Shown here piece after piece: positions 4,171 to 31,702 of a DNA stretch of 44,936 nucleotides. A model generated the notes under the pieces. The model saw only the letters and a list, made by a program, of their open reading frames with translations. It was not told where the DNA came from and made no database searches. The position numbers and the translations under genes are program-made. Source of the stretch: a virus; IMG/VR virus record IMGVR_UViG_3300045988_042992, positions 1 through 44,936 of that record, one strand, 5' to 3'. Position 1 is the first letter of the stretch. The number at the start of each line of letters is the position of its first letter.

Positions 4171-5253
4171 ATGAGCTGCGTTAAGTGCGGTGGAGTTTTG
4201 CCGGACGGTGCTCTGTTTTGCCCATCTTGCGGAAAGCGGCAATCCAAACAATCCCGCAGGGCCATCAAGAGGCCCAACGGATCCGGCACGGTCTATAAAC
4301 TGCAAGGCCGAAGGAGCCGCCCGTGGGTGGCGGCAAAAAGTAGGGTGATTATAGGATATTACCCCACGCGCAAAGACGCGCTGGAGGCTCTGGAACGCTT
4401 GGCGGGGAAGGATTTGACAGAGCGGTATAACATGACTTTCAGGGAAGTATTTGAAGCCTGGAAAGAGGAACACTATAAGGAAATAGGCCCCCGTGGGGTG
4501 GAGTCATATAACCGGGCTTTTGACGTGTTCCAGCCGCTCCACGATGCAAGATTCCGCAGTTTGCGGACAGCAGACTTTCAGTCGGTCATGGACAAATATG
4601 CGGATAAATCCCACAGCACATGCAGCAAGTACAAGCAGCTTGTTACGCAGATGTCCGCATGGGCTATCCGGGAAGAAATTGCAACAACAAGCTTTGCAAA
4701 ATTTATCCATCTGCCAGAAAACGTGAAAAAAGAAAAGGAAATCTTTTCCGATTCGGACATTGAGAAGCTGGAGAAAAACGGAAGCGACACCGCGAAAATT
4801 ATCTTGATGCTGATTTACACGGGCATGAGAATCGGAGAGCTTTTTGGTCTCCCGCTGGCCGACTATCACGAAACCTATGTCATCGGGGGAGAAAAGACCG
4901 CCGCCGGGCGCAACCGGGCCATCCCCATCAGGCCGGAGGGCCGGGCATACTTCGCATACTTTGCCGCCAGGGCAAAGGGTGCGCTCTTGCTGTCCGGCTA
5001 TACTGGCCAACAGGTACCGGCAAATTTCCGTCGACGGGATTACTACCCGTTGCTGGAAAAGCTCAAGATCGAGCGGAAAACTCCGCATGCCACCCGGCAC
5101 ACCTACGCCAGCTGGGCCAGAAGATCAGGCATGGCCACGGAGATTTTGCAAAAAATATTGGGTCACGCCGACTATTCCACAACGGCAAATATTTATGTCC
5201 ACACAGACATTCCGGAACTGATTGCAGCTGTAGACACGGCTGATGAAAAATAG
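4171..5253 (+). CDS. int: Tyrosine integrase with an N-terminal zinc ribbon
   Basis: AAAGGAGG-ATG start at 4171. N-terminus CVKCGG..CPSCG. Catalytic signature RIGEL ... HATRHTYAS ... LGHADYSTTANIYVH (R, HxxR, H, Y). Confidence 0.9.
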   Translation: MSCVKCGGVLPDGALFCPSCGKRQSKQSRRAIKRPNGSGTVYKLQGRRSRPWVAAKSRVIIGYYPTRKDALEALERLAGKDLTERYNMTFREVFEAWKEEHYKEIGPRGVESYNRAFDVFQPLHDARFRSLRTADFQSVMDKYADKSHSTCSKYKQLVTQMSAWAIREEIATTSFAKFIHLPENVKKEKEIFSDSDIEKLEKNGSDTAKIILMLIYTGMRIGELFGLPLADYHETYVIGGEKTAAGRNRAIPIRPEGRAYFAYFAARAKGALLLSGYTGQQVPANFRRRDYYPLLEKLKIERKTPHATRHTYASWARRSGMATEILQKILGHADYSTTANIYVHTDIPELIAAVDTADEK

Positions 5254-22436: not shown

Positions 22437-23012
22437 TTATTTGTTATTTGCGGATTCTTCTTGTGCCTTCAGGCGCGTGTAATAAGCGATTTCCGCATAG
22501 TTCTTGCTTGCACGCGCCTCCTCGATCTTCTTGCCGTAATCAACTCCAACGGGACCGGCACCGCCGTGCGGCGCGGGAGTGCCCTTGAGGATGTCGGACT
22601 TTACCTTCTTGGCATACTCGTCCAAGAACTTCTGCTGGTTCGCAAAGACCTTTGCGGAATCACCAGCCGCCAGAGCTTTGGCAGTGTCACTTGCCAGGTC
22701 CTCTGCATAGCCCTGCGCCACGAACTTGGCCTTGTACTCAGAGACGGTCTTTGCCGTTCTCAGCTCGTCAAGCTCTTTCTGCATGGCGGCAATGCTATCG
22801 GCTTGCTCCTGCTTTTTGCGCTCGTCCTCGGAAAGCATGTCGTTGTACTTTTTTTTCCACTGGGCGGCGTCGGAGTTTGCCTTGGAAATAGCGTTTTTCT
22901 GCCGAGAAAGCTCTGCGGCGTTGTCCTCATACTCAAAGCCCTCCAAGGCTTTGAGCTTGTCCTCGGTGGACATATCTGCGTAACCTTCGATTCTGCTGGT
23001 GTCGATTTTCAT
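22437..23012 (-). CDS. Scaffolding protein (GP20-like)
   Basis: It is a coiled-coil, acidic protein. The N-terminus MKIDTSRIEGYADMSTEDKLKALEGFEYEDN is typical of GP20 minor structural/scaffold proteins. Confidence 0.8.
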   Translation of the reverse strand: MKIDTSRIEGYADMSTEDKLKALEGFEYEDNAAELSRQKNAISKANSDAAQWKKKYNDMLSEDERKKQEQADSIAAMQKELDELRTAKTVSEYKAKFVAQGYAEDLASDTAKALAAGDSAKVFANQQKFLDEYAKKVKSDILKGTPAPHGGAGPVGVDYGKKIEEARASKNYAEIAYYTRLKAQEESANNK

Positions 23013-24454
23013 GTTGATACCTCCTGCGTTTTTTCGGCGGTTCCCTCCGCACCGTTTTCCGTTTTTTCCGAGGTTGTCTCCCCGTTGCGTTTTAACGACT
23101 TCCCTGTCGATAGTTCCTTTTCTTCTTGCTTTTCGGCATATTCCGCGCTGATTTTGTACGCAAGCTGAGGATCGGAGAACATGCCGCAGTGTGTAAATGC
23201 CAGTTGTGGGGCAATTTTCCCGTTGTTCAGCATGGCTACCAAAACACTGGCCTTTTCGCTGATATTTTCGTAATTCCGTCGCGTAAACCGGATTTCCAGG
23301 GCGGACATTTTCAAAGAAAGTGCCCGCAGATTATTGCAGATTTTGATGGCAATTTTCAGAAACTGCTTTTCGGACCGTTTGAACATCTGTTCGGAATCCT
23401 TTGCCCGCGCCTCTGCCGACGACCATCCGTCGCGCATAATGACCGCAGATCCGGTGTCACTGGTTGAGGACCCTCCATTCCGGTTCGGCATTCCGCAAAT
23501 TGTCAGAACGGTGTCGTACATGTCATCCGTCAAAGTCTGGGTCTGCGTCTGGTTCAGCTCCGCCGTCAGGTACCCAACGTCAGCCTTGAGCGTCGCGTCA
23601 ATGTCCTTGAACTTAATAGCACCTTCTGCCCTCAGATTCTTGTAATCTTCGGACGAAATGTCCACGTTGTGGAACAGCATCAGCGCCTGGACAAACTGTT
23701 CAACGCCGTCCATGCGGTTGGATTGGACGTTGTTGATAGCGTCCAGAAGGGGGAGCACGATTTCAAAAGCGCCCAACCGGGCTTCATTGGCGGGGTACTC
23801 GATAATGGGGATTCCCAAAATCTGCGGCTCCGCTTTCACGTCCCAGGTTTCCGTCACCTCGAAATACGTATCCTCGGAATAGCAGCAGAAAACAACGGTA
23901 TTGTCCTCTTTCTGCACATACGTCACGCCCAGAATGGGACGGTGACCTAATCCGCTGGAGTACACCACAAAGGTGTTGCGAGGGTCCAGTGTAAAAATCT
24001 CAAACGGAGATTCATCTTCCTCCACGTCCGCCATTCTGTCCGGCAGAATCATGCGGTAAGACGTGCCGCAAATATGGAACCAGTCCGCCAGCTCCTTGTC
24101 CTTTGCGGCCTTGTCTTCCGAAAGCGCATAATCGTTGAGCTTGGACACGCCTTCAGCGACAGATTCATCGTTCCCCCTGCTGACGTACTGCACAGGCTCA
24201 CCCAGAAGATACCCGACCTTGAACGAAACAATCTCGTTCGCCCGGTTCACAACAATCTTGTTGTTGATTTCCGGCCTGACGTCCTTTACCCTGCCCAAAA
24301 TGGGCTGGTCTCCCTTGTAATACCTGTAAAGATACTCAATATCCGCCCGGTTCATTTGGTGGATGGGCATAGCCCTTTGCAAAACATCCACCACATTTCC
24401 CCGGGTGACGTGCTCAACGTCCGTGTAGATAACCTTCCGACCAAAAAGATTCAT
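23009..24454 (-). CDS. Portal protein (SPP1 gp6-like)
   Basis: About 480 aa, downstream of terL. SD AAGGGGG is 7 nt before the ATG at 24454; the ORF-track GTG at 24460 is less likely. Confidence 0.85.
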   Translation of the reverse strand: MNLFGRKVIYTDVEHVTRGNVVDVLQRAMPIHQMNRADIEYLYRYYKGDQPILGRVKDVRPEINNKIVVNRANEIVSFKVGYLLGEPVQYVSRGNDESVAEGVSKLNDYALSEDKAAKDKELADWFHICGTSYRMILPDRMADVEEDESPFEIFTLDPRNTFVVYSSGLGHRPILGVTYVQKEDNTVVFCCYSEDTYFEVTETWDVKAEPQILGIPIIEYPANEARLGAFEIVLPLLDAINNVQSNRMDGVEQFVQALMLFHNVDISSEDYKNLRAEGAIKFKDIDATLKADVGYLTAELNQTQTQTLTDDMYDTVLTICGMPNRNGGSSTSDTGSAVIMRDGWSSAEARAKDSEQMFKRSEKQFLKIAIKICNNLRALSLKMSALEIRFTRRNYENISEKASVLVAMLNNGKIAPQLAFTHCGMFSDPQLAYKISAEYAEKQEEKELSTGKSLKRNGETTSEKTENGAEGTAEKTQEVST

Positions 24455-24466
24455 TGGCACACCCCC

Positions 24467-26122
24467 TTAAAATGGCCGCTTGAACACTTCCACTTTGCCG
24501 CCCACTCGCATCCGGATTTCGTTCTCAAGCAGGGACAGGGCATCCGGTGCGTCATCGTGCGGCACTTTGCCGCTCCGGGTGTAAGTGGTGACTTCCTTCA
24601 TGAAATTGAAGTACTGGCTGCCCCGCTTATAGGTGGACGGATGCTTGAACCAGAAGTGTTTCTTGATGTTGTCGGACGCAAATTCAATTCGCGTCTGTTT
24701 GTTGGAAATGGTCCTTTTTGTACGTATTCCAACGCTATATCCACGCTGCCGGACGATTTCCGCAACGTCTCTGGCGTAATACATGCCCGCGTTGTTGCTT
24801 TCAAACAGCGCGTCCGCAACGCGGTTGTCGATCAGGCACCTGGCGCATTCTGGCTTTGTGACGTCCGGTGGAGAATCATCAAACACCACGTCCACGATAT
24901 ACACTTCATCCCCGTACAGCGCCGCAACGGGAAGGGCGGTGCTGTCGCTTCCGCTTTCTGCGGTGTCGCACACGGCAATAACGGCGTCCGGATCACGGCC
25001 TGTGGGGAGTTCAAAGAAATAATTCAGCTCATCCTTGTTAAAAAGCAGCCCCTTTGCTTCAAAGGGCTGCTGCTGGAATTCACTCTCAAATTGCTCCGCG
25101 CTCAAAAGCTCCCTCTGTTCGCGGAAATACGCTGTAGTAAACACCTTTTTCCCGTCCCGTTCGTATTCGTAGTTACTCTCGTCCGTAACGGGGTCAAGTG
25201 CTGGTATTTCAATGGCTTTCCACGCCCAGCCGCCTTTTTGTGCTTCCTCTTGGAGGTGGCCGATGGGGTCATACAGGGAATATCGGGTCCCCGTGGCGAC
25301 AATGGGGGTTCCCTCAATGGCTCGGCCCAGGATATCGCCGGATATGATCTCCCACTTATCGTCCAGTCTCTGGCGGTTTTTTGCTTCCTCGCGTCCCTCT
25401 ACGCAGTCATCCAGATATAGGACGTTCGTAGCCTCCGACAAGCCCACTTGTCTTGCGTCAATGGATCGGCACATGACTGTGGGGAAGCGGGATTTTGACC
25501 GCAGATTCAGTATCTTTGTGTCCGCATTGGTCTGCACCAGCGGAGAATTGGGAAAAACGTCATAGAATAAATATTCATTTGGCGTTTGCAGATACTCCAG
25601 GCACCCGGAATAAAAGCTTTTCACCAGATCGTCCCCCGTCCCTTCCATTAGGGACGACTTGTCCGGTTCCCGCCCAGACAGAAAATTGACGAAATTGATG
25701 CCCAACTGGGATTTCCCGGCGCGTTTTGGCATCGACAGCGTCAACAGCCGCAGTTTTCCGTCCAAAACCTCCTGATACGCCGCCACAATAGGCCGCAGAT
25801 AATGCCGCCTAGGTGCGTAGAACTTCTTCTCCGGCTTGCGGTTCATCTCGATATACAGCAGAAACGTGTCGAAATCGTGCGGTGCGTCAAAGCACATGGC
25901 CTTTTTGTACACGTCAAACAGAGAATCCGCCGCCTTTGCGTTGCATGTGTGCAGGGCCGCAGAACTCATTTTTCGCAAATCCTTGCTCAGCTCATGGGCC
26001 AGGGTGAAATCATCCGGTTCCAGTTGTCGGCATACGGACAGAAGGTCCATGTACGGCACGTGGTCGAACGGATTCCGCGCAATATGCTGTTTTATGCGTT
26101 CTGATAGTTTTGCGTAGTCCAT
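24467..26122 (-). CDS. terL: Terminase large subunit
   Basis: Walker A-like MPKRAGKS, Walker B VLYLDD, and nuclease motifs CDTAESG and HDDAPDALS. Confidence 0.9.
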   Translation of the reverse strand: MDYAKLSERIKQHIARNPFDHVPYMDLLSVCRQLEPDDFTLAHELSKDLRKMSSAALHTCNAKAADSLFDVYKKAMCFDAPHDFDTFLLYIEMNRKPEKKFYAPRRHYLRPIVAAYQEVLDGKLRLLTLSMPKRAGKSQLGINFVNFLSGREPDKSSLMEGTGDDLVKSFYSGCLEYLQTPNEYLFYDVFPNSPLVQTNADTKILNLRSKSRFPTVMCRSIDARQVGLSEATNVLYLDDCVEGREEAKNRQRLDDKWEIISGDILGRAIEGTPIVATGTRYSLYDPIGHLQEEAQKGGWAWKAIEIPALDPVTDESNYEYERDGKKVFTTAYFREQRELLSAEQFESEFQQQPFEAKGLLFNKDELNYFFELPTGRDPDAVIAVCDTAESGSDSTALPVAALYGDEVYIVDVVFDDSPPDVTKPECARCLIDNRVADALFESNNAGMYYARDVAEIVRQRGYSVGIRTKRTISNKQTRIEFASDNIKKHFWFKHPSTYKRGSQYFNFMKEVTTYTRSGKVPHDDAPDALSLLENEIRMRVGGKVEVFKRPF

Positions 26123-26194: not shown

Positions 26195-26659
26195 TTACTC
26201 GCCCACGTTGATTGTGATCGTGTCAGAGGTCTCGTTGAAATCAGCGGTCAGTTTGAACTCAAGCGTTTTGACCTCGGAAATGTCGGACAGGCCAGCCTTT
26301 TCAAGGTAGAAAAACATGGAATAATTGATGTTTTTCCCGCCCTGCATTGTTGCGGGGACTCCGCCCAGATATTGGACCATCGTATCATTCACAGAGCTGT
26401 CCTGCGGATATACCGTAATTTCCTGGTCCGTCTTGTTCTCGAATTTCATCTGGATGTAGCAAACACCCGGCACGGAATCCAGTTCCGTGATGCCCAGGTA
26501 CGTTGCCTTGAACGTCTGGCCGTCATACACGACCTTCTCAACGGTCTGACCTCCGGTCTCGCCGTCATCCGGTTGGTCCACGGTGCCTCCGCACCCGACC
26601 ATAGCAATTGCCGCCACCATGATGGCAAGCAGCACTGCCCACACTCTCTTTGCTCTCAT
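26195..26659 (-). CDS. Lipoprotein (signal peptide + lipobox MVGC)
   Basis: MRAKRVWAVLLAIMVAAIAMVGC-GG. GGAGG lies 9 nt upstream of the ATG at 26659. The mature domain is beta-rich. Confidence 0.8.
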   Translation of the reverse strand: MRAKRVWAVLLAIMVAAIAMVGCGGTVDQPDDGETGGQTVEKVVYDGQTFKATYLGITELDSVPGVCYIQMKFENKTDQEITVYPQDSSVNDTMVQYLGGVPATMQGGKNINYSMFFYLEKAGLSDISEVKTLEFKLTADFNETSDTITINVGE

Positions 26660-26704
26660 TTTCCTTTTCCTCCACATTTATTTTCTCCCGGGTGGCCGGG
26701 GGAA

Positions 26705-27277
26705 TTACTTCATCTCGCCGGATTCGTATTCCTTAACACGCCGGTAGAATGTGTTCGGCTTCAGTCCCAAATGACCCATAGCCGCTTTGGCGGTGATATG
26801 GCCCGATTTCCAAAGGTCGTATTCCTGTTCAAACTTCTTCCTGTCCACCGGGATAGCCTGACGGCCTACATACTCGCCGCGCTCCTTTTTCGCATCGATG
26901 CCCTCTTTCTGCCGGGATTTGATATAATCACGCTCCAGCTGGCTCACTGCCGCAAATACCGTCAGCATAAATTTGCCCGCCGGGGTGGTGGTATCTATCT
27001 TTTCCTTCTGTGATTCAAATTGTACACCCTTCTCTGTCAGTTGGTCAACAAGGTTTAGCAAATCGCGCGTATTTCTTGCAAACCGGCTGATCTCGCTCAC
27101 AACCACGGTATCGCCCTCGCGCACAAACGCCAACAGCTTCTTCAGTTCTGGCCGGTCAGTATTTTTGCCGCTACACTTGTCTACAAACAGCTTCTCCGCG
27201 CCGAGCGCTTCCATCGTGATTTCCTGCCTTGCTGTGTTTTGCTCTTTCGTTGACACACGGACGTATCCTACTTTCAT
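26705..27277 (-). CDS. Small serine recombinase (resolvase/invertase family)
   Basis: MKVGYVRVSTKEQ (catalytic Ser motif), ...VVSEISRFARNTRDLL..., and a C-terminal HTH ...HLGLKPNTFYRRVKEYE. SD AAAGGAGGG. Confidence 0.9.
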   Translation of the reverse strand: MKVGYVRVSTKEQNTARQEITMEALGAEKLFVDKCSGKNTDRPELKKLLAFVREGDTVVVSEISRFARNTRDLLNLVDQLTEKGVQFESQKEKIDTTTPAGKFMLTVFAAVSQLERDYIKSRQKEGIDAKKERGEYVGRQAIPVDRKKFEQEYDLWKSGHITAKAAMGHLGLKPNTFYRRVKEYESGEMK

Positions 27278-27299
27278 TTTTCGTCCCTCCTTTGCCGTG

Positions 27300-27328
27300 A
27301 TTATATCACGTCTGCAAGGGTGTGTCAA
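27300..27328 (-). promoter_or_regulatory. Perfect consensus promoter TTGACA-17-TATAAT with extended -10 and an A-rich UP-like tract, for recombinase+lipoprotein
   Basis: Minus-strand TTGACA (27323-27328) and TATAAT (27300-27305), with TG at -15/-14. A second overlapping TTGACA lies 8 bp upstream. Confidence 0.75.
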
Positions 27329-27458
27329 TATGTCAATTTCAGTTTATGCAATGCGCAGGTATTTTTTTCTCTTTTGTTTTTTGCGGGCATTTTGAGGCTT
27401 ACCCGGCCCCGCTCCCGCCCACGATATCCCCCACCCCCGCCCGGCCACGCCTCCCGCG

Positions 27459-27507
27459 CATGGCAAAAGGTATACCCATGCGCAACACCGGCGGCGCGTT
27501 GCGCATG
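27459..27507. promoter_or_regulatory. Overlapping palindromes built on GCGCATG half-sites
   Basis: GCGCATGG-N12-CCATGCGC (27459-27486) and CATGCGCAAC-N11-GTTGCGCATG (27477-27507). These are candidate protein-binding (res-like or operator) sites. Confidence 0.45.
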
Positions 27508-27554
27508 CCTTGCAAATAATCCATTGCAATATTGCAAAATTGCTAATTAAGGTA

Positions 27555-27583
27555 TTGACATACTGCCCCCATCGTGATATTAT
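27555..27583 (+). promoter_or_regulatory. Consensus promoter TTGACA-17-TATTAT with extended -10 for the four-gene cassette
   Basis: TTGACA at 27555-27560, TATTAT at 27578-27583, TG at 27575-27576. It is followed by a roughly 140-nt GC-rich leader. Confidence 0.75.
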
Positions 27584-27731
27584 ATCAGCGTAGAGAGAGG
27601 GCCGCGCCGGTTACAGCCTACCAAGCCCCGGAGCAGCCCCCACACCAGACCAGAGGCCCAGCGCGTACAGTGTACCACGCCCGGGCTACCTGGTCAAGAG
27701 ATAGGGCCAGCAAAAGGCCGGGAGGTATATT

Positions 27732-28127
27732 ATGATGGATATCAATTATAGCGCGGTGCGTGAGCAGATCAAGGCCACGCCAGCCCGCAGCGCATGGCGG
27801 CGCGGTGTCTCCGCTTACGCGCTGGAGCTGCTGGACAGCGTAGCCGGTCGCGCGGCTTATGAGGGTCACGGCCCCGAGGATGTCGCCCAGCTCCGCAAGT
27901 GGATGTTGGACGGGGCCAGGGACTGGAGCGAGTACAGTTACGGCGGTTGCTCCCTGGTGTATGACGGAGACATTGCCGAGCGGCTATGCACACCCTCCGA
28001 GCTGCGCAAGACTCGCGGCGGCGAGCGCAACCCGAATTGTCGGGAGTCCTGGCTGGATGTCCAGGCCCGCGCCCTGTATTGCGCGGCCTGCGCTGTCGTC
28101 ACCGCTTGCAAGGAGGTGCGGCAATGA
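27732..28127 (+). CDS. Hypothetical protein (131 aa), cassette gene 1
   Basis: ORF track; SD GGGAGG. ...SAWRRGVSAYALELLD...GGCSLVYDGDIAERLCTPSEL... is weakly remembered from conjugative-element cargo. Confidence 0.65.
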   Translation: MMDINYSAVREQIKATPARSAWRRGVSAYALELLDSVAGRAAYEGHGPEDVAQLRKWMLDGARDWSEYSYGGCSLVYDGDIAERLCTPSELRKTRGGERNPNCRESWLDVQARALYCAACAVVTACKEVRQ

Positions 28128-28399
28128 GCGCTAACGAGATTGCCGCCAAGGTGCAAGAGCTTAGGGAGCTGCGCCGCATGGCTGACGAGCTGTCCGCAGA
28201 GATTGACAGCTTGCAAGACTCCATCAAGCAGCACATGGACGCCGCCGGGGTTGATACCCTGGCGGGCCTGGATTACAAGATCACCTACAAGGCCGTTACA
28301 TCGGCCCGGCTGGACTCTAAGGCCCTCAAGGCCGATCAGCCAGATCTGTACGCCAAGTACACCAAGCAGACCACGGCGCGCCGGTTTTGCCTCGTCTGA
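28124..28399 (+). CDS. Hypothetical coiled-coil protein (91 aa), cassette gene 2
   Basis: AAGGAGG start at 28124, with ATGA overlap with gene 1. Confidence 0.6.
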   Translation: MSANEIAAKVQELRELRRMADELSAEIDSLQDSIKQHMDAAGVDTLAGLDYKITYKAVTSARLDSKALKADQPDLYAKYTKQTTARRFCLV

Positions 28400-28411
28400 G
28401 GGGGTGCCGGA

Positions 28412-28486
28412 TTGCTATCTATCTTGTTACTGATCATCTGGTTTCCGCTGGCCGTCCTGGCCGACGTGGTCCGCAAGTCCAAGTAA
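28412..28486 (+). CDS. Possible 24-aa hydrophobic peptide (TTG start)
   Basis: Hand translation gives (M)LSILLLIIWFPLAVLADVVRKSK after GAGGGGG. Confidence 0.3.
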   Translation: MLSILLLIIWFPLAVLADVVRKSK

Positions 28487-28530
28487 TCAACCATCTGACA
28501 GGGGCAGAGCCCCGGAAAGGATATGTCACC

Positions 28531-28728
28531 ATGACATATGTAGACGCTATCAAGGCCGGATATAAGACGGCAGACACCAAGTACCAGCGCGGATATGTTA
28601 GCCGCCTGGCAGACCCCGACGCGCAGCCGGTACACGCTGCCGGGGGCAATCGCAAGGGCCAGCTGTATGTGCTGCTCCCCTGCTATTGCAGCACTCAATA
28701 CTGCATCCGGCAGTATCTCTATAGATGA
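28531..28728 (+). CDS. Hypothetical protein (65 aa), cassette gene 4
   Basis: MTYVDAIKAGYKTADTKYQRGYVSRL...; followed by a terminator. Confidence 0.55.
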   Translation: MTYVDAIKAGYKTADTKYQRGYVSRLADPDAQPVHAAGGNRKGQLYVLLPCYCSTQYCIRQYLYR

Positions 28729-28744
28729 CCTTCCAGGCAACAGG

Positions 28745-28779
28745 CCGCCCCGGAGCTATTCCGGGGCGGTTATTTTTTT
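28745..28779 (+). terminator. Rho-independent terminator of the four-gene cassette
   Basis: CCGCCCCGGA-gctat-TCCGGGGCGG followed by TTATTTTTTT. A second hairpin, CCCGCAAA-ggcg-TTTTGCGGG, follows at about 28785-28806. Confidence 0.85.
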
Positions 28780-29144
28780 GCCCTGCCCGCAAAGGCGTTT
28801 TGCGGGCTTTTGGCGTTGGGTGGTATTGTGGGATACCGCCGCCAATGCAACATGCTGTGCGCGGCGTTTTAGCGTGGTTTGCGGGGGTGTTGTGGTATAG
28901 TGTGTTTGCGCGGTGTGTGGCTGCCCCGTTTTTCCCGCCTTGATCGTGGCGGCGTGGGCGCGTCCGGGCCCGTTGGATATGGCACCGCCGCAAATCGTAT
29001 TGACAGGCCCCGCGATGCTGCGGTGCTGGGGCATAATCCCGGGCGAGACAGTGCGCGCCGTCCGGCTCAGGGCGCGGCTGGCAGAAAAGGCGGGGAGTTG
29101 GTCAAGCGGCTGTGCGCATGCGCTCAATCTGGCGGATTCGCGCC

Positions 29145-29282
29145 GAAAGTCGCTGCGAAAGTCGCCCGGTTTTGCGTGAAAGTCGCTGATAGTCGCTAAA
29201 CCGTGTATAAACCCGGGAAAAACGTTGCCCCTACTCCGAAAGTTGCTGAATAGTCGCTAAGAAAATCAGGTTTCATAGTCGC
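29145..29282. repeat. Cluster of seven (G)AAAGTCGC / ATAGTCGC direct repeats at the 3' end of terS; pac-site or TerS-binding candidate
   Basis: GAAAGTCGC at 29145, 29157 and 29178; GAAAGTTGC at 29238; ATAGTCGC at 29189, 29250 and 29275. Two composite units, CGAAAGTyGCTGA(A)TAGTCGCTAA, lie about 60 bp apart. Confidence 0.5.
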
Positions 29283-29916
29283 AAGACGCCGCTTCGATGT
29301 ACTTCTTCTGAAGTTCTTCGGGCGGCGTTTCTGTTCCAAGGGGATTGTTGGGCGTGAGAACGACCTCTTGTTTGTCGGTCATGCCGAAAAAGTTCTTCGC
29401 GCGGAAAATGTACGTAATCTGCGGAATTTTCCCCTGTGAGACCAGTTTTGCGTCGATTCCGGCCAGAATTTGTTTGGCTTTTTTTATCATGCCAGCCCTC
29501 ACGGGGCCCAACGATCCCTTTTGCCAGTCCAAAACCGTTTGAGTTACGGCCCCGAGAGCGAGGCACATATCCTCCACCGTGGGGATTTGTCCTTCCTCTA
29601 CACACTGTTGGAAATAGTCGTTAAGCTTATCGGCGCATTCCTCATCAGTTTTTACGCACGACCTCTTAAAGTATTGGAATGATTCCCTAACGATTTGTGA
29701 AATCTCTTCATTTGTTGCAGTACACCTGGCCGTAACAGATGCTGATGCCGCTCCCCTGGTGTGTGAGATGGCATTCTCTCCGCGCTCTTGTACGATGATC
29801 TTGCGGATAGTCGGCTCGGACAGCCCGTTTTGTTTTGCCACAGTCGCTATATGCTTACATGCGTCATAGTCGGCAAGGACTTGCTCTCTCATAGCTTGCG
29901 TGATTTTACTTGCCAT
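29266..29916 (-). CDS. terS: Terminase small subunit
   Basis: N-terminal HTH (...ATVAKQNGLSEPTIRKII). The central ...IPTVEDMCLALGAVTQTVLDWQKG... and ...YIFRAKNFFGMTDKQE are typical of Terminase_2-type small subunits. Confidence 0.8.
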   Translation of the reverse strand: MASKITQAMREQVLADYDACKHIATVAKQNGLSEPTIRKIIVQERGENAISHTRGAASASVTARCTATNEEISQIVRESFQYFKRSCVKTDEECADKLNDYFQQCVEEGQIPTVEDMCLALGAVTQTVLDWQKGSLGPVRAGMIKKAKQILAGIDAKLVSQGKIPQITYIFRAKNFFGMTDKQEVVLTPNNPLGTETPPEELQKKYIEAASCDYET

Positions 29917-30154
29917 CTATGTCACCTTCTTCCCGTCTTAACATATTTGGGGTGATTTCAAAAAATCCGTCACACTCCGGGCACCTGACATACGCATCTG
30001 CCGGTCGGACAATCATTCTACCGGTCATGTAGCCGCGCTCAACATTTTGAACGTATTGAACTTCGCTTCTCGGATTGAACTCAAATATGCACCCGCACGT
30101 TGGGCATTCTGCCCGGGCAAATTTATCTTGTTTCCCGTGCTTAATGATTTTCAT
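29906..30154 (-). CDS. Zinc-ribbon protein (82 aa)
   Basis: CPTCGC ... CPEC; SD AGGAGGAG. It overlaps the terS start by 11 nt. Confidence 0.65.
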   Translation of the reverse strand: MKIIKHGKQDKFARAECPTCGCIFEFNPRSEVQYVQNVERGYMTGRMIVRPADAYVRCPECDGFFEITPNMLRREEGDIDGK

Positions 30155-30335
30155 GACTCCTCCTGTTTATGTGCCGCGCTCCCACCTCTGCGCTATGTAT
30201 GGCACAAGTTCACCCGCCCAATTGGGCACTCCTATGTGTTGCCGTATGCCCGCAGAGGGGCTGTGTTATGCAGAAACTCGGGGGGGCTCCCGCTTCATCA
30301 CACCGTTTTTTCGTCCGGTCGGGGGCCCCCGTTGT

Positions 30336-30409
30336 TGGCAAAGGCGAGTGGAATCGAACCACTATCTTCGGTTTTGGAGACCGCCGCGTTACCATTACAC
30401 CACGCCCTT
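30336..30409 (-). tRNA. tRNA-Trp (anticodon CCA)
   Basis: Hand fold: AAGGGCG-TG-GTGT-AATGGTA-ACGC-G-GCGGT-CTCCAAA-ACCGA-AGAT-AGTGG-TTCGATT-CCACT-CGCCTTT-G-CCA. It closely parallels bacterial tRNA-Trp. Confidence 0.85.
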
Positions 30410-30502
30410 TGGAACGGGCGGCTGGAGTCGAACCAGCGACCAAGGGTATTCAATCGCATATCCCTTCACGCGATAAAGCTCTGCCGACTGAGCTACGCCC
30501 GC
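30410..30502 (-). ncRNA. Aberrant 93-nt tRNA-like element (normal acceptor, D and T arms; anticodon arm replaced by a possible pseudoknot)
   Basis: GCGGGCG-TA-GCTCAGTCGGCAGAGC ... GCTGG-TTCGACT-CCAGC-CGCCCGT-T-CCA. The internal 40 nt can form ATCGC/GCGAT interleaved with AAGGG/CCCTT. Confidence 0.5.
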
Positions 30503-30969
30503 ATTTGCTCGGCTTGCCGCTTAGATTGTCACTCCTCATGCGCGCTTGAAGCCCCGCAAGCATTTCAAGCGGCCACACATTGGCTATCGCAAGGGGGACG
30601 CATCCCCACGGCAGTTTTCAGCGGCCATTGTCATTTGCATGTGAGCCATGCCGGACGGTCTCACATTGTCCGGGCGCTACCCGGCCTCTGGTACCACACC
30701 GCGCTGCGCCTTTTCATCAGCCACGCACTGTTTTTGCGGATTAACTGTCCGCCGCTATCCGGATAGCTTGTGCGTACTTAACTTCTCGCGCTTCCTCGCC
30801 CGCTTGTGTGGTTGGTGCGGCATTGCAGTCCTGCCCTGCTTTAGCGCTTCAGGGGAAGCCCCCGTCACTCGCTGTGGTCTCCCACTACGGGGTACCTATG
30901 CCGCATATATGTCCGGTTTCCACGGTTACCCCACTTGTTTATACTCCGTTGGTGACTCCGTTTAGAGTT
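30503..30969 (-). ncRNA. Candidate large structured non-coding RNA between phage tRNAs (ROOL/GOLLD-class hypothesis)
   Basis: This 467 nt has no credible ORF and is flanked by co-oriented tRNAs. It is dense in GC-rich hairpins (e.g. GGGG-gctt-CCCC, GCGGA-cagttaa-TCCGC, CCGGG-tagcg-CCCGG, GGGGA-tgcg-TCCCC, GCTTGAA...TTCAAGC). Confidence 0.45.
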
Positions 30970-31044
30970 TGGCGCAGGCGGCTGGAGTCGAACCAGCACA
31001 TACGGGAGTCAAAGTCCCGTGCCTTACCTTTTGGCTACACCCGC
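30970..31044 (-). tRNA. tRNA-Gln (anticodon TTG)
   Basis: Hand fold: GCGGGTG-TA-GCC-AAAAGGTAA-GGC-A-CGGGA-CTTTGAC-TCCCG-TATGT-GCTGG-TTCGACT-CCAGC-CGCCTGC-G-CCA. The D-arm is Gln-like. Confidence 0.88.
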
Positions 31045-31082
31045 ATAAAAACAGACACCCGCGAGATATCCCGTGAGTGTCT
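31045..31082 (-). terminator. Intrinsic terminator directly upstream of tRNA-Gln
   Basis: The minus strand reads CAGACAC...GTGTCTG (an extended imperfect stem) followed by TTTTTAT. Confidence 0.6.
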
Positions 31083-31087
31083 GCATG

Positions 31088-31135
31088 CCGGTAACACCCT
31101 TGCGGGGCCGCTTGCGCGGAGGCACCCATTACCGG
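31088..31135 (-). ncRNA. Structured leader element: 7-bp closing stem enclosing two hairpins, each capped by a GCAA tetraloop
   Basis: CCGGTAA-...CCGC-gcaa-GCGG...CCC(C)-gcaa-GGG(T)...-TTACCGG on the minus strand. Confidence 0.45.
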
Positions 31136-31221
31136 CCGTGCCTTAACCTATGGAGGAAAGAAAGAGGAGAAAAATGAAATTTCGGGTTGTGGGCTGACTG
31201 GTTCCACTCTCCGATGATACT

Positions 31222-31230
31222 ATTTTAGCA
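31222..31230 (-). promoter_or_regulatory. Extended -10 promoter element TGCTAAAAT with a poor -35 (activator-dependent late-promoter candidate)
   Basis: Read on the minus strand about 30 nt after the stop of the RinA/ArpU-like gene. Confidence 0.4.
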
Positions 31231-31258
31231 CGTTTTTATGTGCCTAATGGGCCAACTT

Positions 31259-31702
31259 TTAGGAAACCAGGCCCAAATAATCCGCTACGTGCCACAAAAA
31301 TGCAGCTTTGCGGCGCTTCATGGTTCTCTCGCTGAATCCGCATCCGTCCATGATTCTAAGCGGGTATCTGTCCCGGTTCTCGCAATTCCGCATGATCACC
31401 CACACCAGCTTGCGCCGCACGTTCTCATTGGCAATATCCCGGCCCACGTTGTCCATGGCGTATTCCACGGCCCGCATTTTCTTTGTCTCCGGCCAGTTCT
31501 CTATGGTTGCCAGCCGTTCCGCCTTGCGCTCGGCTATCCTGCTGTTACCGGGGCTATGCGGCATACCGGACATGGCATAAGCCGACGACTCCAACACTTC
31601 TTCCCGGGCCGCGTTGTACGCGCGGACCCGGCGGGGATAGCCCCTGACGTAGGCGATACATTCCATGCGGATATCGTAGGGGAGAGAATATTTGTTGCTC
31701 AT
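31259..31702 (-). CDS. Late-gene transcriptional regulator candidate (RinA/ArpU-like)
   Basis: 147 aa; the last early gene before the packaging region. C-terminal HTH-like ...GFSERTMKRRKAAFLWHVADYLG. The layout is analogous to RinA-family activators. Confidence 0.5.
   Translation of the reverse strand: MSNKYSLPYDIRMECIAYVRGYPRRVRAYNAAREEVLESSAYAMSGMPHSPGNSRIAERKAERLATIENWPETKKMRAVEYAMDNVGRDIANENVRRKLVWVIMRNCENRDRYPLRIMDGCGFSERTMKRRKAAFLWHVADYLGLVS

Follow-up and report, generated by a model that had tools for sequence, protein, structure and literature searches.

A likely accessory, tRNA-punctuated array of tRNA-mimic RNAs in a phage late-operon leader

Introduction

RNAs derived from the spacers of tRNA operons exist, 3'ETS-leuZ of E. 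coli being one example. Phages and prophages carry, near their tRNAs, the non-coding and structured RNAs ROOL and GOLLD, which are probably co-transcribed with these tRNAs (PMC5737381), while the mascRNA of MALAT1 is cut by RNase P and receives a CCA end (PMC11693755). Furthermore, phage tRNAs counter tRNA-cleaving defences (PMC10264068, PMC11555353, PMC11464382), and some effectors cleave the CCA tails of tRNAs (PMC12851939).

Here, we analyse a window of 44,936 nucleotides (IMG/VR record IMGVR_UViG_3300045988_042992, positions 1 to 44,936) and, within it, the region from 30155 to 31258. Three segments of this region, referred to as A1, A2 and B, are RNA modules that had not been classified before and are not covered by any Rfam family; these modules, as well as the neighbouring tRNA-like element TL, have conserved secondary structures with compensatory changes. 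The most likely interpretation, in our view, is that the late-operon leader harbours here an accessory array of tRNA-mimic RNAs punctuated by tRNAs.

Results

The region is preceded by a phage activator gene (147 aa; phrog_248, weak match) and followed by terS, with the terL and portal genes also nearby. No credible ORF was found between the activator gene and the zinc-ribbon and terS genes: eight ORFs of the region matched no Pfam family at E ≤ 0.01, and the longest ORFs are antisense, cross tRNA genes or lose their frame in relatives. These results bear out the earlier note on this DNA, which had described an ORF-free RNA locus between the early and late genes, and the ORF-track entries that it had dismissed as Cys/Arg/Pro-rich shadows do have that composition. 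On the minus strand, which carries all features described below unless stated otherwise, the array reads tRNA-Gln, spacer P0, A1, A2, B, TL and tRNA-Trp, with neighbours abutting within 0–2 nt.

Manual reading of the sequence revealed an extended -10-like element, TGCTAAAAT (31222–31230, minus strand), 29 nt downstream of the activator stop codon, which is a candidate for the leader promoter. The promoter-like element noted earlier amounts only to this sequence; a sigma-70 consensus scan did not call it, because there is no -35 element at the right spacing. The adjoining leader (31085–31221), in which a long imperfect hairpin is predicted, is 90–99% conserved in 75 related loci and includes an 18-nt segment (31136–31153) that resembles the D-arm region of tRNA-Gln as a direct repeat. 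The terminator that had been claimed to precede tRNA-Gln was recovered as an intrinsic-terminator-like structure at 31045–31084, consisting of a 34-nt hairpin (10 + 4 bp), on which the minimum free energy (MFE) and centroid folds agree, and the sequence UUUUUAU. The last base of this structure stands directly before the first base of tRNA-Gln, leaving no space for a separate promoter between the two; a simple terminator scan did not call the hairpin, probably because its stem is interrupted.

At the other end of the array, the leader tail (30155–30335) contains a conserved motif at about 30171–30229, which immediately precedes the ribosome-binding site that serves the first late ORF. This motif is composed of GCCC-loop-GGGC, GGGUGAA and then a nested hairpin with a G-rich loop; its variants differ in their stems while the layout is constant, and of 126 evaluable loci, 92 have it no more than 1.5 kb downstream of B. 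A sigma-70 scan of the tail before the first late ORF called no promoter. With a confidence slightly better than even, which applies jointly to the processing picture discussed below, we take the region to be the 5' leader of the late (packaging) operon with a tRNA-gene-like array inside.

ARAGORN and the Rfam tRNA model both detected the two tRNAs and the tRNA-like element that had been claimed, reproducing the coordinates given for them, and the minus-strand anatomy put forward earlier (leader, terminator, tRNA-Gln, tRNA-like element, tRNA-Trp) proved to be right. tRNA-Gln (UUG anticodon; 30970–31044; 64.7 bits) is present in 75 of 75 related loci and, like tRNA-Trp (CCA anticodon; 30336–30409; 60 bits), has an encoded CCA tail. 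The 93-nt TL (30410–30502) scores 41.3 bits against a gathering score of 29 (RF00005), the model skipping the anticodon arm. Its acceptor, D and T arms are normal, it ends in CCA, and the arms are 98–100% paired in 14 variants (99.5% of all cells across variants). Where a tRNA has a 17-nt anticodon arm (5 bp, 7-nt loop), however, TL has 34 nt that do not form such an arm; these can instead form an H-type pseudoknot of two interlocked 5-bp stems, AUCGC/GCGAU and AAGGG/CCCUU. The second stem shows one compensatory pair (G-C to U-A, three variants), and the first is invariant. TL is also found elsewhere, independent of this array, and there has a similar 3' end of its own. In relatives, we additionally observed tRNA-like genes with abnormal anticodon loops, for which ARAGORN gives 2- or 4-base 'anticodons' or odd lengths.

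We searched the Rfam 15 covariance models at the gathering score, then at E ≤ 10 on 30100–31350 and at E ≤ 1 in five relatives whose modules are ordered differently. Only the tRNA family matched in the window and in these relatives; the models included ROOL, GOLLD, tmRNA, RNase P and introns, all of which the earlier note had named. The suggested ROOL or GOLLD membership thus found no covariance-model match, and what the note had offered as its fallback, an unclassified phage RNA, is borne out. Weak matches to YrlA, SAM-II and Plastid-ycf2 were discarded as chance or tRNA-likeness; the YrlA match (RF02553; 26.4 bits, gathering score 69, E = 0.004) lies across the junction of TL and tRNA-Trp and is a tRNA-likeness artefact. 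ARAGORN called no tmRNA. Group I and II introns, RNase P RNA, tmRNA, self-cleaving ribozymes, T-boxes and retrons were dropped since no model matched, and an HDV-like ribozyme was dropped on manual reading, the covarying P1 and P2 pairings of B being incompatible with an HDV-like fold.

The 467 nt between TL and tRNA-Gln (30503–30969) had been described as a single hairpin-rich RNA. They do contain structured sub-segments whose helices covary among relatives, but they are not one unit: folded whole, the stretch reaches a z-score of only -1.3 (opposite strand, -0.7), so that its energy is not exceptional, and it resolves into a 65-nt spacer, P0, followed by A1 (92 nt), A2 (124 nt) and B (186 nt). 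The structure of P0 (30905–30969) is unconvincing (z = +1.1). The spacer was found in only five sequence variants, each located after tRNA-Gln, and its 3' end resembles the 3' tail of B. Comparison of homologous loci for covariation, as had been proposed, revealed compensatory changes in A1, A2 and B alike.

Module A1 (30813–30904) is a 92-nt cloverleaf whose MFE and centroid folds are identical (z = -2.5 against shuffles). It has a 7-bp acceptor-like stem (GCGGCAU/AUGCCGC), three arms and an ACCA end, and its third arm (4–5 bp, 7-nt loop), which is contiguous with the 3' strand, is T-arm-like, although the loop reads GGCAGGA and not the T-loop consensus UUCRANY. Across 28 variants, 94% of cells are paired, compared with 35–45% when the partner strand is slid, and six pairs show compensatory changes, a count equalled in one of 500 shuffles. 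Module A2 (30689–30812), a 124-nt rod with a three-way tip (z = -2.5 against shuffles), is closed by the 7-bp stem ACCACAC/GUGUGGU and likewise ends in ACCA. Compensatory changes affect 14 of its 35 pairs, against 6.7 ± 1.5 in shuffles (0 of 500 reach 14), and in relatives the closing stem is swapped for UCCCGGC/GCCGGGA or UUCACAC/GUGUGA(U).

In both A1 and A2, a 7-bp terminal helix is followed by an unpaired N and CCA, as in an acceptor-end mimic. Most variants end in ACCA and some in ACAA, AUUA or GCCG; the NCCA ends are no more conserved than the rest of the modules and are missing in several variants. The tRNA model (RF00005) did not match 30689–30904, which comprises A1 and A2, at E ≤ 10; given this result and the absence of the T-loop consensus from A1, it is not certain that tRNA enzymes would recognise the two modules.

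For module B (30503–30688), the predicted fold and compensatory changes point to two hairpins, P1 (CCGGGU/GCCCGG) and P2 (AUGUGAG.CCGU/AUGGCUCACAU), and a multibranch domain closed by GCCGCU/AGCGGC; the module contains three GACAAU motifs. In B, 97% of cells are paired, compared with 28–46% when slid, and there are 25 compensatory cells against 11 in shuffles, while the number of covarying pairs shows a modest excess (7 against 5.1). The P2 stem is swapped in a compensatory manner in two loci (L198 and L218), and the central domain, though it falls into three sequence classes, has a single architecture. Between conserved loops of different modules, complementarity was limited to 5-nt matches.

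At least 120 related contigs of human-gut phages carry the modules, which can stand alone or in a different order (tRNA-B; tRNA-B-A1; tRNA-B-A1-A2; A1-B; A1-A2-B-TL). The gaps are mostly of 0–5 nt, and the modules are nearly always placed immediately behind the CCA that ends a tRNA or tRNA-like gene. Partial copies consist of P0 and A1 only or of B only, and one locus (L062) ends inside the array. The set is accessory: 52 of 76 relatives, selected through a neighbouring protein, have no module. Leader, terminator, tRNA-Gln and tail motif are the invariant pieces of the locus; A1, A2 and B do not belong to them. The module family is narrow, comprising human-gut phages that are 85–99% identical, one metagenome-assembled genome (MAG) from GTDB and a few metagenome variants, and for this reason many of the compensatory changes may stem from few events.

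The phage GenBank collection yielded one close, unannotated relative (MT836871) and otherwise tRNA-only matches, and the terL relatives among named phages are all at most 36% identical. In searches of the GTDB species genomes for a host, neither the exact B pattern nor the neighbouring activator protein had any match; a looser B pattern gave one chance match and one MAG labelled Staphylococcaceae, a label that is doubtful given the GC content of the DNA. When metagenomes were scanned for B with an altered P2 stem, most matches were due to chance and lay in AT-rich coding DNA, and the real copies were only L218 plus L202 and L217 from the human gut; L198 and L199 came from the GTDB and IMG/VR scans.

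The modules are enclosed by a 21-bp direct repeat, GCTGGTTCGACTCCAGCCGCC, the left copy of which (30977–30997) forms the T-arm and acceptor 3' strand of tRNA-Gln, while the right copy (30417–30437), 560 bp away, forms the T-arm and acceptor of TL. In L028, a near-identical phage, both flanks are identical and exactly the 560 bp between the repeat copies are missing, which points to gain or loss of the segment by recombination between tRNA-like ends. The figure of 560 nt, given earlier for the 467 nt together with the tRNA-like part, is therefore real as the length of an indel bounded by this repeat, but it is not that of an RNA. As in an integrative element, both ends bear direct repeats of the 3' portion of a tRNA, and L028 shows the empty site; however, the 560 bp contain no recombinase and no family-matching ORF.

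Discussion

Two readings would give the region a product other than separate small RNAs. It is extremely improbable that a small protein is encoded on either strand: an antisense frame of 105–106 codons (30648–30965, plus strand) is unbroken in 12 near-identical copies, but it is disrupted in L001 by a 19-nt length difference and straddles modules that are found apart in other phages. Moreover, the region's frames have the Cys/Arg/Pro-rich composition and lack of Pfam matches (E ≤ 0.01) described above, and its substitutions track base pairing, not codons. That the 467 nt, or 560 nt with TL, constitute a single large ornate RNA of the ROOL/GOLLD type has been largely refuted and appears very improbable, even though the genomic setting of such RNAs is present (tRNA-Gln, TL and tRNA-Trp as flanks, the phage activator gene and terS on either side), the length lies within the ROOL size range and the MFE fold of the whole stretch includes long-range pairs. 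No ROOL, GOLLD or other large-RNA model matched (E ≤ 10 in the window, E ≤ 1 in the five relatives), the z-score of the whole is only -1.3, the first 65 nt are unstructured, and every part has a terminal helix of its own that closes it, the parts being found alone or reordered in other phages.

The remaining alternatives concern how the segment arose and whether and how its RNAs act. The 560 bp could be a miniature, non-autonomous integrative cassette that was placed into the tRNA-Gln 3' end by a site-specific recombinase supplied in trans and that, like integrating elements, brought a substitute tRNA 3' end with it; besides the T-arm/acceptor repeats and the empty site in L028, the left tRNA end (..CCTGCGCCA) always accompanies the insert, and a serine recombinase gene lies 3 kb away. 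We nevertheless regard this as improbable: that gene is part of a separate conserved island between terS and terL, the segment has no recombinase of its own, TL is found on its own in other places and has a similar 3' end there, the 'insert-type' tRNA end is present in L010 although that locus has no insert, and the many other junction types at other tRNA-like boundaries fit general or illegitimate recombination between similar tRNA ends. We also think it unlikely that the modules are decaying remnants of old tRNA genes or spacers in a recombination hot spot, functionless and kept by recent divergence. Their absence from 52 of the 76 relatives, their narrow distribution, their truncated and mosaic variants, as expected of decaying or dispensable DNA, their identity of about 93%, similar to that of the neighbouring genes, and the tRNA-Gln-like fragment in the leader itself would fit such decay, but double substitutions keep the helices, with the A2 closing stem and also hairpins in A2 and B wholly replaced. 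Furthermore, 94–97% of cells are paired, against 20–45% with the partner slid, the arms that are not tRNA-like are conserved too, and B retains one architecture in three sequence classes. Finally, the array might be a cis-acting leader of the late operon, serving anti-termination, mRNA stability or terS translation, and not a source of trans-acting RNAs; such a role, which we hold to be quite unlikely, would suit its position between the promoter/terminator pair (the promoter being a candidate) and the first late ORF, the lack of a called promoter downstream of the array and the conserved structured motif at the ribosome-binding site. However, near-isogenic phages have the same late operon without any module, so that the modules are dispensable for late expression, and it is not A1, A2 and B that are invariant.

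For the accessory, tRNA-punctuated array, which we prefer to these alternatives, the arrangement of the locus suggests the following scheme. By analogy with lambda PR'-tR', the array would be transcribed by read-through of the upstream terminator once late transcription is on. RNase P would cleave 5' of every acceptor-like stem and in doing so also generate the ...CCA 3' end of the preceding unit. Once freed, the CCA-tailed mimics and TL may act in trans on host factors whose recognition of tRNAs relies on the acceptor/T-arm half, and the actual cargo may be B, whose ends the flanking tRNA-like units would define. Taken as a whole, this picture of architecture and processing seems to us moderately probable. 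The most plausible role of the mimics and TL, which we suggest only tentatively, is that of decoys for tRNA-directed defence nucleases or tRNA-binding enzymes. It is a comparably speculative proposal that phages have a new kind of RNA 'cassette', of which A1, A2, B and TL would be the first members: CCA-tailed or tRNA-flanked mimics that travel in tRNA arrays, pass between phages by recombination at tRNA-like ends, are freed by host tRNA processing and serve in trans as decoys, for instance for tRNA-directed immune nucleases or tail-cleaving effectors, or as RNA-assembly blocks; if so, these cassettes would be the RNA counterpart of protein 'moron' or anti-defence loci.

If the RNAs are made and processed as proposed, the diversification of tRNAs by phages would extend to entire families of accessory cargo RNAs that are tRNA-shaped but do not decode. 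tRNA-like ends would then double as processing signals and as handles for the recombination that shuffles RNA genes, and the niche beside phage tRNAs that is known for GOLLD and ROOL would also house small modular RNAs. The modules are short (92–186 nt) and structurally defined candidates for testing against tRNA-targeting defence systems. They also correct a tempting mis-annotation, as an ORF-free kilobase beside phage tRNAs need not be ROOL or GOLLD. Like ROOL (RF03087) and GOLLD (RF01998), the RNAs described here are non-coding, highly structured, phage-associated and adjacent to tRNA genes; unlike ROOL, they comprise three autonomous, reshuffling units of 92, 124 and 186 nt, two of which (A1 and A2) bear tRNA-style acceptor ends with CCA that set them apart from both families. 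GOLLD is about 800 nt long, whereas the total non-tRNA RNA here is 467 nt.

In the MALAT1 mascRNA and MEN-beta transcripts, and in mitochondrial tRNA punctuation, cloverleaf mimics with an acceptor-like stem border another RNA, as they do here, and tRNA-end enzymes could define both products. Those systems are eukaryotic, however, whereas in this phage the CCA is genome-encoded, processing is something that we infer, and an operon leader holds several mimics in a row with genuine tRNAs. The array also resembles phage tRNA arrays that counter defences (T5-type; evasion of PARIS, retron and PrrC) in being phage-borne, accessory and tRNA-clustered, with anticodon regions off the host norm (PMC10264068, PMC11555353, PMC11464382). 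In contrast to the decoding-competent tRNAs of those arrays, TL is without an anticodon arm, and A1 and A2 are not recognisable as tRNAs by a sequence model.

An acceptor/T-arm mimic joined to a non-tRNA structure is likewise a feature of the Y-RNA-like YrlA and of the tRNA-like domain of tmRNA, but the YrlA match here lies below the gathering score and ARAGORN does not call a tmRNA. Like the RNAs derived from tRNA-operon spacers, B sits as an internal or external transcribed spacer and could be a by-product of tRNA processing; its length, its elaborate fold and the conservation of that structure set B apart from them.

A probable tRNA-punctuated array between the activator gene and the late genes

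The ORF-free region at 30155–31258 contains what is most likely a tRNA-punctuated array, encoded on the minus strand, of three unclassified structured RNA modules (A1, A2 and B) and an anticodon-less tRNA mimic (TL). As the earlier note had proposed, it lies between the gene for a 147-aa protein (31259–31702), whose match to transcriptional activators in PHROGs is weak, and terS (29266–29916); PHROGs also identified terL (24467–26122) and the portal gene (23009–24460). ARAGORN and Rfam concur with the initial reading of two tRNAs and a tRNA-like element at 30336–31044, assigning on the minus strand tRNA-Gln(UUG) to 30970–31044, the 93-nt TL to 30410–30502 and tRNA-Trp(CCA) to 30336–30409. TL exceeds the Rfam tRNA threshold (41.3 versus 29 bits) solely because the model skips 34 nt, which occupy the place of the 17-nt anticodon arm. 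The absence of a credible ORF was likewise borne out: the long ORFs within 30155–31258 are antisense or cross tRNA genes, and no Pfam family was found for any ORF there, which makes a hidden protein encoded in the region very unlikely.

Of the signals noted in the leader, the terminator was recovered by folding (31045–31084; a 34-nt hairpin followed by UUUUUAU, its last base adjoining tRNA-Gln), while the promoter-like element, an extended -10-like TGCTAAAAT read at 31222–31230, was not called by a consensus promoter scan. Upstream of the terminator, 18 nt of the leader (31136–31153) match 31017–31034 in tRNA-Gln, its D-arm/anticodon-stem region, at 83% identity, and this similarity suggests that the leader is partly descended from a tRNA gene.

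The 467 nt are a concatenation of separate modules

The earlier note had also raised the possibility that the 467 nt at 30503–30969 form one large RNA of the ROOL or GOLLD type. No covariance-model match to either family was obtained in the window or in five relatives, and at gathering scores cmscan of the whole window returned three tRNA hits only. The cmscan proposed for 30155–31258 was run on 30100–31350 at E≤10 and yielded, beyond tRNA, just two hits with E>3 and a YrlA fragment, which was rejected (26 versus 69 bits, straddling the TL/tRNA-Trp junction). Rfam scans of five relatives with another piece order gave tRNA-type hits alone. Folded whole, the 467 nt are no better than shuffled sequence (z = -1.3; antisense strand, z = -0.7), and the pieces are found singly and reordered in other contigs. 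A single ROOL-like RNA is thus excluded as far as Rfam, folding and modularity reach. The fallback suggestion of an unclassified phage RNA fits better: the modules match no Rfam family and appear to be RNA families new to Rfam, although tRNA-like and tRNA-adjacent phage RNAs are, as a kind, already known.

The region begins with P0 (30905–30969), an unstructured spacer (z = +1.1). A1 (30813–30904, 92 nt; z = -2.5) is a cloverleaf, also obtained by single-sequence folding, with a 7-bp terminal helix, two arms (in most variants the loop of one is of the GNRA type) and a T-arm-like third arm (4–5 bp, 7-nt loop) that continues into the terminal helix on its 3' strand; it ends in ACCA. Across 28 variants, 94% of cells are paired, versus 35–45% with the partner slid, and six pairs show double changes, a number matched by 1 of 500 shuffles. 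A2 (30689–30812, 124 nt) forms a rod that branches three ways at its tip; ACCACAC/GUGUGGU closes it, and ACCA follows. Compensatory changes occur in 14 of its 35 pairs (6.7±1.5 in shuffles; 0/500), and the closing helix is replaced entirely by UCCCGGC/GCCGGGA in one lineage and partially in another. B (30503–30688, 186 nt) has a pair of hairpins on its 5' side and a multibranch domain with GCCGCU/AGCGGC as its closing helix. The inner domain keeps one layout across three sequence classes; 97% of cells are paired (28–46% when slid), and the second hairpin has a compensatory swap in a MAG and a human-gut contig. In TL the acceptor, D and T arms are retained, with 99.5% of cells paired. The 34-nt insert could form two interlocked 5-bp stems, one with a G-C to U-A double change (three variants) and the other invariant, so that a pseudoknot is plausible but weakly supported.

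The units abut at ...ACCA/ACCACAC..., ...ACCA/GAGGCC..., ...AAAU/GCGGGCG... and ...UCCA/AAGGGCG... (slash, boundary); the supposed 467-nt RNA is therefore a concatenation in which units begin at the CCA end of the preceding one, in the style of compact tRNA operons.

Distribution among related phages

We retrieved 75 IMG/VR loci through the neighbouring 147-aa protein, together with one human-faecal GenBank contig. Leader, terminator and tRNA-Gln are present in all retrieved loci, while the downstream content varies. One locus, L028, equals the window on both flanks minus exactly 560 bp, namely the segment between two copies of GCTGGTTCGACTCCAGCCGCC, which make up the T-arm plus the 3' acceptor strand in tRNA-Gln (30977–30997) and in TL (30417–30437). 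In the window the array forms an accessory 560-bp segment. Among 76 loci picked for the module census without regard to the RNA, 52 have no piece at all, 14 the full set, 8 the spacer and first module, and 2 other partial sets.

A pattern from the most conserved stretch matched at least 120 further IMG/VR contigs, in which pieces occur solitary and in different orders: among the contigs listed, tRNA-B (the commonest), tRNA-B-A1, tRNA-B-A1-A2, A1-B and the window order A1-A2-B-TL, with gaps of mostly 0–5 nt and always on the strand of the tRNA. True matches were confined to viromes or metagenomes of the human gut, apart from one MAG of doubtful label. No close cultured phage was found, terL being at most 36% identical to that of any named phage.

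The main rival explanation, that the modules are junk or tRNA remnants, draws on their narrow distribution, the existence of truncated copies and the youth of the sequences. However, helices are maintained by double substitutions and whole stems are swapped, which argues for selection on structure. Recombinase-mediated insertion of a mobile cassette would also fit the flanking repeats and the empty site, but the segment itself contains no recombinase, junctions of many other types occur, and the serine recombinase found 3 kb away is part of a separate conserved island.

Proposed expression and function

Since the terminator adjoins tRNA-Gln, leaving no room for a promoter of its own, and the consensus scan called no promoter ahead of the first late ORF, the array is most simply regarded as part of the late transcript. 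It would be transcribed with the late genes by read-through of the terminator, with the 147-aa activator as the likely switch, an arrangement similar to lambda PR'/tR'. RNase P recognizes the acceptor/T-stem stack; by these established substrate rules it would cut 5' of every acceptor-like helix, which would free each unit and, by the same cut, leave the one before it with its CCA 3' end.

Near-isogenic phages do without the units, so late expression does not require them, and an accessory role in trans is accordingly a better fit than regulation in cis. Given the abnormal anticodon loops in the tRNA-like genes of relatives, and the lack of one in TL, we favour the inference that the units are tRNA mimics engaging factors that read the acceptor/T half of tRNA. 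This would be in line with phage tRNAs countering tRNA-cleaving defences (PMC10264068, PMC11555353, PMC11464382) and with effectors that cleave CCA tails (PMC12851939). Alternatively, within the same picture, B may be the payload, its ends set by tRNA-like units in a manner likened to mascRNA (PMC11693755). Short and well defined, the modules lend themselves to direct testing.

Related arrays and neighbouring sites

Arrays of related phages contain odd tRNA-like genes (e.g., L084 606–683, L139 607–683, and in L100, L082, L078 and L081), among them a 78-nt 'Thr(cgt)' with an anticodon loop of 8–10 nt and an unusual T-loop, and a 77-nt 'Trp(cca)' whose D-arm is aberrant; ARAGORN gives several of them 2- or 4-base anticodons. 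An unclassified spacer of ~175–185 nt recurs between a tRNA-like element (TL or another odd gene) and the 77-nt tRNA-Trp-like gene (L139, oriented extract 425–606; 173–184-nt gaps in L088, L090, L111, L180 and L188) and probably represents one more type of module in this system. In L010 (4657–4765), tRNA-Gln has the 3' end ..GCCGCCTGCGCCA, which otherwise always accompanies a module insert, yet modules are absent; this end may have been left behind by recombination, or it may be a variant of independent origin.

In some phages, protein-coding inserts also occupy the hot spot flanked by tRNA-Gln and the tail motif: one with an HNH/NUMOD-type homing-endonuclease-like ORF (L062, 5020–5520), and one of ~450 bp that includes a small ORF (MGIEICPMTLKEANAYVAEHHRHHKP...; L027, L038, L041, L057, L072 and L073, ~4735–5185).

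The terS–terL gap (26195–29265) is a 3.1-kb island containing a lipoprotein-like ORF (26195–26677), a serine recombinase/DNA invertase (26705–27328; phrog_125, E = 8e-65), two plus-strand ORFs (27732–28399) and an ORF-poor, GC-rich stretch of 866 nt (28400–29265). Across 46 related loci this stretch is ~88–89% identical and changes in length (terS, ~97%). Rfam gave no hit in the stretch or the island, and inverted repeats in the island are weak (28067–28097 with 29047–29077, 71% complementary).

Finally, a conserved minus-strand motif at ~30171–30229 lies just 5' of the first late ORF's ribosome-binding site. Most related loci have it at the corresponding position, and among 126 evaluable loci it occurs downstream of B in 92. 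Its parts are a GCCC-loop-GGGC hairpin, GGGU(G/A)AA and then a nested hairpin whose loop is G-rich (AGAGGUGGGA / AAGGGGCGGG). It exists in at least three sequence versions that differ in their stems and keep a constant layout, and it could act as an RNA element within the late mRNA or as a DNA site bound by a protein.
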